A stretch of 64,000 nucleotides of DNA from Escherichia phage MirsaeidiM_Esher1, in the sequence record PQ438048.1; one strand, given 5' to 3'. This document shows, in pieces, positions 44,354 to 46,016 of the stretch (its first letter is position 1; every line of letters starts with the position of its first letter). Position numbers and translations under genes: made by a program. Below the pieces are notes generated by a model. It saw nothing but the letters and a program-made list of their open reading frames with translations. It ran no database searches and was not told the origin of the DNA.

Positions 44354-44920
44354 ATGAAAGTAAAGAAGACAAGTATTGAAGGGGCAGTCGTCATTACTCC
44401 CGATGTTTACAAAGATGATCGTGGCTTTTTCTTGGAAACATATAACGAAGAAAAGTATGCAGATATCATTGGTAAACAAACGTTCGTTCAAGATAACATG
44501 TCTAAATCAAACTTCGGTGTTTTACGAGGAATGCACTTTCAAACAAATAACCCGCAAGGTAAGCTTGTTCGTTGTGTAAGTGGAGAAGTATTGGATTTCG
44601 CTGTAGATCTACGTAAAGATAGTCCAACTTACGGTGCTTGGGACGGTGTTGTTCTTCGTGCACGACACCATACGCAGTTTTGGCTTCCACCTGGTTTGGC
44701 ACATGGCTTTATAGTTTTGAGTATGGATGCTATCTTTGAATATAAATGCACAACTCCATACGACCCTTCTAGCGAACAAAGTTTACGTTGGGATGATCCT
44801 GATATAGGGATTGATTGGGGCTTCGATATGATTTTTGATGAAGGTTTTAAACCTATTCTATCAACAAAAGATGCAATGGCTAAATCTTTTCAACAGTTAC
44901 GTAGTGAGGGTGTATGCTAA
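44354..44920 (+). CDS. rmlC: dTDP-4-dehydrorhamnose 3,5-epimerase
   Basis: Closely resembles bacterial RmlC: ITPDVYKDDRGFFLETY and FVQDNMSKSNFGVLRGMHFQ; ATG at 44354 with GGGGGGAG RBS. Confidence 0.8.
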   Translation: MKVKKTSIEGAVVITPDVYKDDRGFFLETYNEEKYADIIGKQTFVQDNMSKSNFGVLRGMHFQTNNPQGKLVRCVSGEVLDFAVDLRKDSPTYGAWDGVVLRARHHTQFWLPPGLAHGFIVLSMDAIFEYKCTTPYDPSSEQSLRWDDPDIGIDWGFDMIFDEGFKPILSTKDAMAKSFQQLRSEGVC

Positions 44921-45756
44921 CATATCTGGTATTGGGTGGTAATGGACAACTGGGACAAGCTTTACGTAAAGTGGCTCCTTCGAATGTATCTTTAATTTAT
45001 CCTAAAGAACGGGTAGATATTACAAATTTTGAAGCTGTGCGAAACGCTATTATTGAAGATTATGTAGATGGTGTTATTAATTGCGCTGCTTATACGGCTG
45101 TAGATAAAGCTGAACAGGATTTTGCTACAGCTTTGGCTGTTAATGCTTATGGCCCTGCAAATATTGCAGCAGTGTGCAGTAAACTTAAAATCGATTTTGT
45201 GCATATTTCTACAGATTATATTTTTAATTCTTCTCAACCTATTTTTGAAGATACTACACCTAACCCTATAAATAATTATGGATATACGAAAGAACTTGGT
45301 GAAAAAATGGTGCGAGGAGTTAACCCAAATGCATATATTATTCGAACAGCCTCCGTATATAGTGAATTTGGAAGTAACTTTCTAAAAACTATGTTGTCTC
45401 GCTATAATGATGGACAACGTGATTTTATTATTGTTGCTGATCAGTTCTCTTGTCCAACATATGCTCCAGATTTAGCAGAAGCTATTTTTGAAGTATTAAA
45501 AACAGGTTGGTCAAGGTCTGTTAAGACTTACCATTTTGCAGGAAGCCATCTTATTTCTTGGGCGGAGTTTGCGGAAAAGATCTTGACACAGATGCCAGAA
45601 CCTGTTAAGATATCGGCGGTATCAGCTTCAACCTATAATGCTCCAGCAGCACGTCCGGTGAAGTCACAACTAGTAACCAGTCACTATCTTACAAAATCAG
45701 ATTTAAATAAAGGTATTGAACAGTCTTTAGCAGTATTACTTAATAAGGAGAGGTAA
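44914..45756 (+). CDS. rmlD: dTDP-4-dehydrorhamnose reductase
   Basis: RmlD blocks: LGGNGQLG, TAVDKAE, HISTDYIF, YGYTKELGE, IRTASVY, FLKTMLS, DQFSCPTY. Confidence 0.8.
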   Translation: MLTYLVLGGNGQLGQALRKVAPSNVSLIYPKERVDITNFEAVRNAIIEDYVDGVINCAAYTAVDKAEQDFATALAVNAYGPANIAAVCSKLKIDFVHISTDYIFNSSQPIFEDTTPNPINNYGYTKELGEKMVRGVNPNAYIIRTASVYSEFGSNFLKTMLSRYNDGQRDFIIVADQFSCPTYAPDLAEAIFEVLKTGWSRSVKTYHFAGSHLISWAEFAEKILTQMPEPVKISAVSASTYNAPAARPVKSQLVTSHYLTKSDLNKGIEQSLAVLLNKER

Positions 45757-46016
45757 TGGAATTTGTAATTTTTGGTAAACCTAACTGTCAATTTTGTGAA
45801 ATGTCAAAACAACTATTAACCATGCGCAATAAACAGTTTGAATATTTAAGTCTTGATCAAGACTATGATTTAGAATCAATGACTAAAACAGTTGTTGATC
45901 TTACCGGAGTTCCTCCACGCACATTTCCACAAATTCTGTCTGAAGTGAACGGGGAGGTAACATACGTAGGCGGTTTTACCGAACTGCGTGATCTCATGGC
46001 TCAAATTGCGGAGTAA
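45756..46016 (+). CDS. glutaredoxin/NrdH-like redoxin
   Basis: 86 aa with CxxC (CQFCEMS) near the N-terminus. Confidence 0.6.
   Translation: MEFVIFGKPNCQFCEMSKQLLTMRNKQFEYLSLDQDYDLESMTKTVVDLTGVPPRTFPQILSEVNGEVTYVGGFTELRDLMAQIAE

Follow-up and report, generated by a model that had tools for sequence, protein, structure and literature searches.

The rmlC and rmlD genes of Escherichia phage MirsaeidiM_Esher1 are best interpreted as a functional remnant of a phage rmlBACD cassette, fed by the host and serving the phage's own glycosyltransferases, a reading to which we assign a probability of roughly 0.7. An old phage-lineage cassette of the order rmlB–rmlA–rmlC–rmlD, lying inside a nucleotide-metabolism operon, would have been reduced to rmlCD by deletion. 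Host RffH and RffG, which belong to enterobacterial common antigen synthesis, would make dTDP-4-keto-6-deoxy-D-glucose in nearly every E. coli, as would RfbA and RfbB in many, and the phage epimerase and reductase would convert this intermediate to dTDP-L-rhamnose. The conversion would be feasible also in strains without a detectable rfbD, which make up roughly half of E. coli. Most likely, the dTDP-L-rhamnose would then be used by four soluble glycosyltransferases of the phage itself, encoded in a cluster elsewhere in the genome beside the replication genes, with a virion protein, a host envelope glycan or something else as candidate acceptor.

Gene content and layout

The DNA analysed is a 64-kb stretch of the phage genome (record PQ438048.1), referred to here as the window. 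It belongs to a Phapecoctavirus, a phAPEC8-like myovirus of the Stephanstirmvirinae. The features under study are collected in Table 1. The initial annotation had reported rmlC and rmlD followed by a glutaredoxin-like gene, and all three are found on the + strand where it had placed them. rmlC and rmlD overlap by 7 nt, and rmlD and the glutaredoxin gene (grx) by 1 nt, suggesting translational coupling. Terminator-like hairpins are found on the + strand at only the two positions listed, and nrdB would be the first gene of the transcription unit that contains rmlCD. The open reading frame between nrdA and nrdB (41396–42055) has no Pfam match.

Table 1. Coordinates of features in and around the rmlCD region of the window
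Feature	Position	Strand	Evidence
Terminator-like hairpin upstream of the nrdB–rmlCD–grx unit	42063..42076	+	GGGGCTTCGGCCCC then T-run; consensus match only
nrdB, class Ia ribonucleotide reductase small subunit	42423..43511	+	ORF; annotated thus in all relatives
phrog_15453 protein, 108 aa, probable GTG start	44010..44336	+	phrog_15453, E=4e-41
Junction, at the rmlB–rmlA site of phAPEC8-type phages; TTAATAAGGGGGGAGAG before the rmlC ATG	44337..44353	+	
rmlC, dTDP-4-dehydrorhamnose 3,5-epimerase, 188 aa	44354..44920	+	TIGR01221, PF00908
rmlD, dTDP-4-dehydrorhamnose reductase, 280 aa	44914..45756	+	TIGR01214, PF04321
Glutaredoxin-like protein, 86 aa, CQFC motif	45756..46016	+	PF00462
Next terminator-like hairpin, downstream of an HslV-like gene	48709..48724	+	TGCCCCTTCGGGGGCA then T-rich tail; consensus match only

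We group the glutaredoxin with the nrdAB ribonucleotide reductase module and not with the sugar pathway. Its match to PF00462 is clear (38.1 bits; cut-off 22.9) and includes the CxxC site C11–Q–F–C14, and it reaches none of the NCBIfam equivalog cut-offs for GrxA, Grx3 or NrdH. The gene follows rmlD in all relatives and is nearly invariant (dS 0–0.08); it is likely to encode the redox partner of phage NrdAB. The GenBank annotation of phAPEC8 records a similarity of this gene to PVP-SE1.

Identity of the rmlC and rmlD products

The window rmlC is predicted to be a functional epimerase gene. Its product scores 222.9 bits against the NCBIfam equivalog TIGR01221 (cut-off 155.75), spanning model positions 1–174 of 176, and matches the Pfam family dTDP_sugar_isom (PF00908) with E=1.7e-66. 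The closest solved structures are the RmlC entries 1ep0 and 1dzr (187–191 bits). Residues His61, Lys70, Tyr130 and Asp173 align with His62, Lys72, Tyr132 and Asp169 of E. coli K-12 RfbC, which we take to correspond to the catalytic His/Asp dyad, Lys and Tyr of Salmonella RmlC (His63, Lys73, Tyr133 and Asp170).

The assignment of RmlD to TIGR01214 is made by a narrow margin (239.4 bits; cut-off 224.05), and the match to Pfam RmlD_sub_bind (PF04321) has E=4.9e-74. Here too the closest solved structures are those of RmlD. The nucleotide-binding motif GxxGxxG is kept (G8, G11 and G14), and Thr100, Tyr122 and Lys126 align with Thr104, Tyr128 and Lys132 of K-12 RfbD, presumably equivalent to the short-chain dehydrogenase (SDR) triad Thr104, Tyr128 and Lys132 of Salmonella RmlD. 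The enterobacterial RfbD model PRK09987 is not reached (118.1 bits; cut-off 308), so the gene is not of the host type. Some RmlD homologues reduce the 4-keto group with the opposite stereochemistry and yield dTDP-6-deoxy-L-talose. The product sugar of the phage enzyme is thus not certain, and we infer L-rhamnose rather than its epimer.

The enzyme families and catalytic residues are those of the E. coli K-12 rfbBDAC and rffGH products. The high similarity to bacterial RmlC and RmlD described in the initial annotation holds for family membership, but not for closeness: amino-acid identity is 48% to K-12 RfbC and 31% to K-12 RfbD, as against 96% and 98% to the RmlC and RmlD of phAPEC8, and the best cellular RmlD homologues reach no more than 45%.

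Absence of rmlA and rmlB and the structure of the junction

Searches of the 64-kb window by tblastn with phAPEC8 RmlA and RmlB find neither gene, in agreement with the initial annotation; the sole match of RmlB is to rmlD, through weak SDR similarity. The rest of the genome, where rmlA, rmlB and glycosyltransferases had been suggested as targets for a search, was approached through the rmlCD-only close relative ETEC-TG (complete genome, 149,880 bp). RmlA and RmlB are missing genome-wide in this phage, and four adjacent glycosyltransferase genes are present, outside the region that matches the window. The four-enzyme dTDP-L-rhamnose pathway is thus incomplete in the window and in the ETEC-TG genome. 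With these two genes missing, RmlC and RmlD would be able to act only on dTDP-4-keto-6-deoxyglucose made by the host.

In phAPEC8 (NC_020079, gp166–gp169) and other phapecoctaviruses with rmlBACD, the cassette occupies the same slot as in the window, between nrdB and grx. The flanking genes of phAPEC8 and the window share 97–98% nucleotide identity, and the 1,876-bp rmlB–rmlA segment found at the junction site in phAPEC8 has no counterpart in the window. All of the rmlCD-only phages examined, ten published ones, share one identical junction, tggtaaGGAGAgaaaATG, which lies within a 5-nt GGAGA ribosome-binding-site microhomology. The window junction differs from this sequence and is unique in the phage database; a strong ribosome-binding site precedes its rmlC.

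The gene directly upstream of the rml cassette is always that of phrog_15453, a conserved protein found in 131 Stephanstirmvirinae records and one distant Salmonella phage. Its allele in the window is closer to that of Wecvirus (79% identity) than to those of Phapecoctavirus (55–73%). The rmlCD-only phapecoctaviruses ESCO37, anhysbys, nepoznato, Mt1B1_P17, ZCKP1, ETEC-TG, ECML-183-2 and others have the window's gene content (the 108-aa gene, rmlC, rmlD and grx), but they differ from it in intergenic sequence and in their upstream-gene allele (55–58% amino-acid identity), and the first 100 nt of rmlC show 23% nucleotide divergence. The upstream gene and the first ~100 nt of rmlC in the window together form a divergent recombinant patch, to which nothing in the phage database is closely similar.

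Cassette states among relatives

An IMG/VR scan with RmlD yielded two loci only, and the survey was based instead on GenBank phage records and metagenome look-ups. Among 64 database records with this type of rmlCD, ~41 have a full rmlBA, one has a partial copy and ~22 have none; the rmlCD-only form makes up about a third of sequenced phapecoctaviruses. The two states occupy the same slot between nrdB and grx, with the order rmlB, rmlA, rmlC, rmlD, grx in phAPEC8 and rmlC, rmlD, grx in anhysbys. The half-cassette variant is already known in print, as ESCO37 has been described as lacking rmlA and rmlB (PMC10269720).

Several further states appear to be stages or variants of decay. An ~803-bp deletion in DIJ07P2 fuses rmlB residues 1–305 to rmlA residues 240–292, and a +2-bp change puts rmlB of KKP3954 out of frame. 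One metagenomic lineage (L035) has rmlA, rmlC and rmlD without rmlB. Another (L034) has lost rmlA, rmlC and parts of rmlB and rmlD, leaving a dead rmlB::rmlD remnant, and this loss indicates that the cassette is dispensable in some settings. The Klebsiella phages FKP3 and phi1_175008 (Stephanstirmvirinae) carry only rmlC–rmlD in the window's slot, with genes for a glutaredoxin (grx), a lysozyme and PhoH next in line. Their proteins are ~57–62% identical to the window's, and a metagenomic locus (L029), also rmlCD-only, belongs here with an identity of about 60%. Since the sister metagenomic lineage L035 keeps rmlA, the loss of rmlBA in the Klebsiella-phage lineage was very probably an independent event.

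Deletion from rmlBACD offers the best account of the half cassette, the direction of change being the one that these states favour. We also considered the reverse, in which an rmlCD-only ancestor gained rmlBA. This would be less parsimonious, as BACD occurs in every major lineage, and it is further disfavoured by the parallel divergence of RmlA/RmlB and RmlC/RmlD and by the independent partial deletions and the frameshift caught among relatives. In no genome examined is rmlBA seen without rmlCD. The 'only the last two steps' of the initial annotation would therefore not be a minimal set in its own right; the window is instead a deletion variant whose sister phages keep the full rmlBACD in the same slot.

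Selection on rmlC and rmlD

Both genes are under strong purifying selection, also among three rmlCD-only phages. They are intact in 20 of the 20 phapecoctavirus copies checked, and comparisons of the window with its relatives give dN/dS values of 0.04–0.07 for rmlC and 0.06–0.15 for rmlD. In the three rmlCD-only genomes of the Klebsiella-phage lineage (FKP3, phi1_175008 and L029), the genes are likewise intact, with dS of 0.13–1.0 and dN/dS of 0.025–0.086.

These values bear directly on the idea that rmlCD are decaying, non-functional passengers left behind after rmlBA was lost. The cassette is clearly deletion-prone, and the lineage with the dead remnant has lost nearly all of it, as this idea would have it. 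Against it stand the intact state of the 20 phapecoctavirus and three Klebsiella-lineage copies, dN/dS of 0.025–0.15 with dS reaching 1.0 among rmlCD-only phages, the retained catalytic residues, and, in the window, the strong ribosome-binding site and overlapping stop and start codons. The selection analysis already largely refutes decay, which we hold to be highly improbable.

Origin of the cassette and probable supply by the host

The rml cassette is old in the phage subfamily and not host-like. Identity to the E. coli K-12 enzymes is 31–65% across the cassette, and full phage cassettes have the gene order BACD, as opposed to BDAC in E. coli. No close DNA match to the cassette is found in 5426 E. 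coli genomes. RmlD homologues that are 50–98% identical lie on contigs of up to ~150 kb, and all seven loci inspected resemble phage DNA and share synteny; identity to cellular homologues does not exceed the 45% given above. The phage genes are located in a ribonucleotide-reductase operon and not in an O-antigen cluster, unlike E. coli rfb. Recent capture from E. coli is ruled out by these identities and by the gene order. In the initial annotation, a complete host-like rml operon had been named as the mark of simple gene capture; a complete operon does exist in sibling phages, but in identity and order it is not host-like.

The rffG–rffH pair is present in 5306 of 5426 complete E. coli genomes, whereas rfbD is detectable by blastn in 2365 of the 5426, a share (44%) that is a lower bound because such a count may miss divergent alleles. 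The substrate of RmlC would be supplied by the host. In this respect, the redirection of host nucleotide-sugar flux suggested initially is upheld as a dependence on that flux, which follows by logic from the absence of rmlA and rmlB in a phage whose rmlC and rmlD are intact and under selection.

Glycosyltransferases and the fate of the sugar

The four glycosyltransferases, none of which has a predicted membrane segment, are the likely consumers of the sugar. One of them, GT3, is confined to the same subfamily as the rml cassette (126 versus 131 records). Co-occurrence within one clade counts as a single phylogenetic observation and gives no independent support for a functional link. GT1, GT3 and GT4 found no meaningful match when searched by sequence against the PDB.

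Among the possible acceptors, DNA has been put forward by earlier authors: dTDP-L-rhamnose would serve to attach rhamnose to a modified base and so help to evade host nucleases, by analogy with the glucosyl-hydroxymethylcytosine of T4. Olsen et al. 2020 (PMC7552041) suggested this use, which recurs in PMC10844046 and was also raised in the initial annotation. The location of the cassette within a nucleotide-metabolism operon is consistent with it, as are the resemblance of GT3 to phrog_842, the PHROG of beta-glucosyl-HMC alpha-glucosyltransferase (E=8e-6), and a weak likeness of ETEC-TG GT3 to the TET-associated DNA glycosyltransferase (TAGT, PF20691; E=1e-3, 19.5 bits versus a cut-off of 27.5), but the GT3 matches fall below family thresholds. 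Moreover, Maffei et al. (PMC8594841) found relatives, including phi92-like phages with the full pathway, to be 'exceptionally susceptible' to restriction-modification systems, the opposite of the resistance expected. The only thymidylate-synthase-like gene in the window (37366–38364) is of the ThyX type (PF02511, 33.2 bits) and not a ThyA-like hydroxymethylase, and the ETEC-TG annotation contains no hydroxymethylase or TET-like gene, though proteins without annotation may hide one. A full-text literature search found nothing on phage DNA hypermodification with a dTDP-rhamnose glycosyltransferase. The restriction susceptibility and the ThyX-type enzyme without a hydroxymethylase make DNA glycosylation improbable. 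An effect on the host envelope is slightly less so, yet still unlikely. Here, RmlC and RmlD would divert dTDP-4-keto-6-deoxyglucose from dTDP-Fuc4NAc or push rhamnose into LPS, and the altered surface glycans might, for example, prevent superinfection or the trapping of progeny. RmlC shares its substrate with the common-antigen enzyme WecE (K-12 wec cluster annotation), and phages of this group recognize glycans of the cell surface, among them common antigen or the NGR glycan (PMC10844046, PMC11990801). Addition of rhamnose to the K-12 LPS core is possible according to a passage of PMC12548472 that cites Klein et al. 2011. The proposal is nevertheless a matter of inference throughout. A full cassette lets a phage make the intermediate for itself, so that the host pool would not be drained; strictly lytic growth leaves little time for envelope turnover; and the phage's own glycosyltransferases are left unexplained. 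Sparing of dTTP, through feedback inhibition of host RmlA by dTDP-rhamnose, was also considered and is argued against by the RmlA that full-cassette phages encode themselves.

Glycosylation of virion proteins, in which the four glycosyltransferases would place a rhamnose-containing glycan on capsid, tail or fibre proteins, is a more serious candidate, though still a doubtful one; it would give a definite identity to the acceptor, for which our main reading lists several candidates. Apart from proteins of the Stephanstirmvirinae and of a single Citrobacter phage, phage homologues of GT3 are confined to ~330 cluster-F mycobacteriophages (25–28% identity, E ~1e-8), and the soluble nature predicted for the glycosyltransferases would suit this role. 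For two cluster-F phages, Che8 and Rita, a passage of PMC11256854 citing Freeman et al. 2023 attributes capsid-protein glycans to phage glycosyltransferases. The likeness of their glycosyltransferase to the Stephanstirmvirinae GT3 is remote, however, extending over ~130 residues and only the nucleotide-binding half of the GT-A fold. The glycosyltransferase genes also lie in early/middle modules and not among structural genes, and the literature searched reports no virion glycosylation for these phages. In cluster-F mycobacteriophages, we know of no rml genes.

Returning to the reading of rmlCD as a host-fed remnant that serves the phage's glycosyltransferases, a wider extension is put forward tentatively: the Stephanstirmvirinae may run a rhamnose-based glycosylation system, composed of the rml cassette and four soluble glycosyltransferases, that would decorate a macromolecule of the phage or the host, with virion proteins as the leading candidate acceptors by remote analogy with mycobacteriophage Che8, and with a supply arm repeatedly pared to the two steps for which hosts are unreliable.

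Implications

Work towards therapy and biocontrol often yields phapecoctaviruses and phi92-like phages, coliphages with a broad host range. Annotations of their rhamnose genes go back to 2012, and the discussion of these genes has been speculative. To this we add that the two-gene form probably arose repeatedly and is maintained by selection, that it fits hosts which nearly always have rffGH and often do not have rfbD, taken here as a marker for the rhamnose branch, and that there are candidate glycosyltransferases to use the product. If the wider glycosylation system proposed above exists, widely used therapeutic coliphages would have a glycan coat, or a means of remodelling the host, that depends on host rffGH. 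Should the virions be glycosylated, this would have a bearing on the immune recognition and pharmacology of therapeutic phages.

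The rml locus and its genomic setting

The initial annotation had described RmlC, RmlD and a glutaredoxin-like gene at 44354–46016, with no RmlA or RmlB visible, and proposed that the two rml genes redirect host nucleotide-sugar flux. The observation itself is confirmed, with the coordinates exact, whereas the interpretation is only partly supported. The three ORFs lie closely packed on the plus strand, and a tblastn search of the 64-kb window with RmlA and RmlB of phAPEC8 (NC_020079), the type of the full rmlB-rmlA-rmlC-rmlD (BACD) cassette, gave zero matches. Alignment with E. 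coli K-12 RfbC shows that the catalytic positions His61, Lys70, Tyr130 and Asp173 of RmlC are all kept, as are the G8xxG11xxG14 motif, Thr100, Tyr122 and Lys126 of RmlD when aligned with RfbD; we take the roles of these residues to be those in the Salmonella enzymes. The glutaredoxin (grx) product reaches no NCBIfam glutaredoxin subfamily cut-off; the phAPEC8 GenBank annotation likens its counterpart to a PVP-SE1 protein.

Features of the window and of the related phage ETEC-TG
Feature	Coordinates	Strand	Description
MazG/PRA-PH-like pyrophosphohydrolase	31231–31956	+	nucleotide module, farther upstream
NT5C-like deoxynucleotidase	36748–37356	+	nucleotide module, immediately 5′ of the ThyX-type gene
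ThyX-type thymidylate synthase	37366–38364	+	long, 332 aa
nrdA	39141–41387	+	ribonucleotide reductase gene
ORF between nrdA and nrdB	41396–42055	+	219 aa
nrdB	42423–43511	+	ribonucleotide reductase gene
rmlC	44354–44920	+	188 aa; Pfam dTDP_sugar_isom E=1.7e-66; NCBIfam equivalog TIGR01221 222.9 bits (cut-off 155.75)
rmlD	44914–45756	+	280 aa; RmlD_sub_bind E=4.9e-74; TIGR01214 239.4 bits (cut-off 224.05)
grx	45756–46016	+	glutaredoxin-fold protein, 86 aa; PF00462 38.1 bits; CQFC motif
DUF7277/DUF7275 protein	54757–55698	+	early region
SIR2-family protein	57956–58756	+	early region; PF02146 E=1.4e-20
tRNA cluster	20656–22739	−	two Met, Ile, Pro, Gln, Gly, Thr, Asn, Ser, Arg; between structural and early regions
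GT1–GT4	ETEC-TG 117,160–120,304 (L024 17160–20304, − strand)		four adjacent annotated glycosyltransferase genes

The window belongs to the phAPEC8-like genus Phapecoctavirus (Stephanstirmvirinae, myoviruses of ~150 kb); positions 30000–54000 are 97–98% identical to genomes such as ECML-183-2, ESCO5 and phAPEC8. It corresponds to positions 89,864 down to 25,963 of ETEC-TG, a close relative (149,880 bp) that carries rmlC and rmlD only. Structural genes and ten tRNA genes occupy the minus strand, and nucleotide-metabolism and early/middle genes the plus strand; the sign of the GC skew changes at ~24000 and ~58000–60000, coinciding with the coding-strand switches. ETEC-TG also has ten tRNA genes at this place, its annotation differing only by a Tyr and a single Met. 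SIR2 domains, one of which lies in the early region, are frequent in defence and counter-defence systems.

In a consensus scan of 38–50 kb, plus-strand terminator-like hairpins occur only at 42063–42076 and 48709–48724; the probable transcription unit between them therefore comprises nrdB, four small ORFs, rmlC, rmlD, grx, a small ORF, lysozyme, phoH, one further ORF and an HslV-like peptidase. By function the grx product groups with NrdAB, as its likely redox partner. We also note that the interval between nrdA and nrdB has the appearance of a homing-element hotspot: the window ORF there has no match in a Pfam search, its ETEC-TG equivalent is annotated as an HNH endonuclease, phage anhysbys has no gene in the gap, phAPEC8 has a different ORF of 135 aa, and in the metagenomic relative L029 nrdA instead contains an intein with a LAGLIDADG domain.

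Two-gene and four-gene forms

In phAPEC8, rmlB, rmlA, rmlC and rmlD lie between a conserved 108-aa gene and grx, whereas in anhysbys the same slot holds rmlC and rmlD only. The two forms differ by one cleanly bounded segment of 1,876 bp, the ends of which fall within a GGAGA ribosome-binding-site repeat. Window-type rmlCD (full length, ≥94% identity) is present in 64 phage records, ~41 of them with full-length rmlBA, one with a partial copy and ~22 with none; the counts of 41 and 22 come from subtraction between two database searches and include RefSeq/GenBank duplicates.

The junction is identical in 10/10 published rmlCD-only phages examined, but the window is set apart by three features. 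It has a distinct intergenic sequence, TTAATAAGGGGGGAGAG, its 108-aa protein is only 55–58% identical to the ETEC-TG-type allele of the other rmlCD-only phages, and its rmlC is 23% diverged from theirs over the first 100 nt and 2–8% beyond. These three features indicate that the window carries a recombinant patch across the rml junction. The patch (~43950–44480) comprises the 108-aa gene, the spacer that holds the junction and ~100 nt at the 5′ end of rmlC, and shows 73–81% nucleotide identity to relatives versus 97–98% in the flanks. The closest Phapecoctavirus alleles of the 108-aa gene reach 73% (protein) and 81% (DNA), the nearest protein allele is that of the proposed ‘Wecvirus’ phages (79%), and no close match across the junction was found in the phage database. 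Either the donor lineage was already rmlCD-only or the deletion in the window was independent.

Five records in these comparisons are labelled as Campylobacter jejuni phages: MG065639 (A150), MG065645 (A145), MG065650 (B15), MG065656 (C3) and MG065689 (A110a). They match phapecoctavirus or phi92-like genes about as closely as coliphages do, and B15 has phAPEC8-type rmlBA at 98%; their host assignment is probably mislabelling or contamination.

Origin and loss of the cassette

Recent capture of the cassette from the host is ruled out by low identity to K-12 proteins, failure of the enterobacterial RfbD model and the lack of a close E. coli DNA match. Window RmlC is 48% identical to RfbC and RmlD 31% to RfbD, while phAPEC8 RmlA and RmlB are 65% and 50% identical to RffH and RffG; phage RmlD scores 118 bits against the 308 required by the RfbD model, and a blastn search of 5426 E. 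coli genomes with rmlCD gave only short stretches at ≤71% identity. The nearest solved relatives of phage RmlD are from Bacillus and Clostridium. In a large protein collection, RmlD homologues at 50–98% identity lie on contigs of up to ~150 kb, and each of the seven loci inspected is phage-like and shows synteny to the window; the closest cellular homologues reach no more than 45%. On these comparisons the cassette is an old resident of the phage subfamily.

The four-gene state can be read as ancestral, since it occurs in every major lineage sampled and, wherever the loci of a lineage were read, the divergence of RmlA and RmlB parallels that of RmlC and RmlD. It is seen in Phapecoctavirus, ‘Wecvirus’, several metagenomic lineages and the phi92-like Justusliebigvirus, for which the complete pathway was reported by Olsen et al. 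2020 (PMC7552041). The rmlCD-only state is found in Phapecoctavirus and also, with proteins ~60% identical to those of the window, in Klebsiella phages FKP3 and phi1_175008 and in L029. Other reduced forms include rmlA-C-D without rmlB in seven contigs of one metagenomic lineage (L035); a ~803-bp deletion in DIJ07P2 that joins rmlB aa 1–305 to rmlA aa 240–292; and a +2-bp frameshift in KKP3954 rmlB, possibly a sequencing error. A dead remnant on a 124-kb Logan contig (DRR502128, L034; 3567–4708) has rmlB(1–138) abutting rmlD(31–279), with rmlA and rmlC absent; RmlB and RmlD are both SDR enzymes, so this deletion may have arisen through homology between their Rossmann folds. None of the genomes examined has rmlBA without rmlCD. 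The two halves also recombine as separate modules with separate histories, because in ‘Wecvirus’ phiWec179 (L021, 4001–7276) and IMG/VR contig IMGVR_UViG_3300014004_000001 (L004, 2571–5843) the rmlBA proteins are 93–97% identical to those of phAPEC8 and the rmlCD proteins only 65%.

Could the remaining pair be a decaying leftover? The 20 phapecoctavirus copies checked are without exception intact, and Nei–Gojobori comparisons between the window and the remaining 19 give dN/dS of 0.04–0.07 for rmlC (dS 0.30–0.51) and 0.06–0.15 for rmlD (dS ~0.1). The Klebsiella-phage lineage, in which all three sequences are rmlCD-only, offers the clearest test; here dN/dS is 0.025–0.086 (dS 0.13–1.0). These values indicate strong purifying selection on rmlCD even without phage rmlA and rmlB, which effectively excludes the leftover reading.

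Substrate supply and use of the sugar

The substrate of RmlC is dTDP-4-keto-6-deoxy-D-glucose. By K-12 annotation, E. coli has two routes to it: RfbA and RfbB, where the O-antigen cluster is of the rhamnose type, and RffH and RffG of the enterobacterial common antigen cluster. K-12 rffG-rffH is present (≥95% identity over ≥80% of length) in 5306/5426 complete E. coli genomes; K-12 rfbD is picked up by sensitive blastn in 2365 of the 5426, a minimum figure since highly divergent alleles would escape the search. We infer that the phages lose the steps that the host nearly always supplies and keep those that about half of hosts lack.

Candidate users of the sugar are the GT1–GT4 genes of ETEC-TG, the complete genome of which lacks rmlA and rmlB. 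These genes adjoin primase/helicase and DNA polymerase (polymerase I) genes; the cluster maps outside the window, which has no homologues of them. GT1 and GT2 are paralogues (41% identity) with weak GT-B (Glyco_trans_1) matches, and DxD-type motifs are apparent by eye in GT3 and GT4. No membrane segment is predicted in any of the four, and none has a sequence relative in the PDB. The only matches of GT3, both sub-threshold, are to TAGT and to the beta-glucosyl-HMC alpha-glucosyltransferase PHROG. Among Stephanstirmvirinae records GT3 occurs in 126, RmlC in 131 and the 108-aa gene in 131, and the BACD phages EP57 and UP17 and rmlCD-only Mt1B1_P17 all carry a GT3 100% identical to that of ETEC-TG.

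Olsen et al. 2020 (PMC7552041) put forward glycosylation of phage DNA, one use suggested by the initial annotation, and PMC10844046 repeated the idea. This use is disfavoured because phages of this group, phi92-likes with the full pathway among them, proved exceptionally sensitive to restriction-modification (Maffei et al. 2021, PMC8594841), the window thymidylate synthase is of the ThyX type rather than a hydroxymethylase, and no base-hydroxylating enzyme was found in the ETEC-TG annotation. As a lead, the kinship of GT3 points to virion glycosylation: apart from Stephanstirmvirinae and a single Citrobacter phage, phage relatives of GT3 are confined to ~330 cluster-F mycobacteriophages (25–28% identity), a group for which PMC11256854, citing Freeman et al. 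2023, reports capsid glycosylation by phage glycosyltransferases.

The rmlCD-only form is already known and ordinary for Phapecoctavirus, as rml annotations date back to 2012 in phAPEC8 and are present in >60 records, the complete phage pathway is discussed in PMC7552041, and the absence of rmlA and rmlB from ESCO37 is stated in PMC10269720. In the literature searched we found no prior report of the recurrent, directional paring-down of the cassette, of selection in rmlCD-only lineages or of a match between cassette loss and host gene distribution, and no experimental test of phage rml function. The interest of the locus is modest and lies in the question of what Stephanstirmvirinae phages glycosylate.
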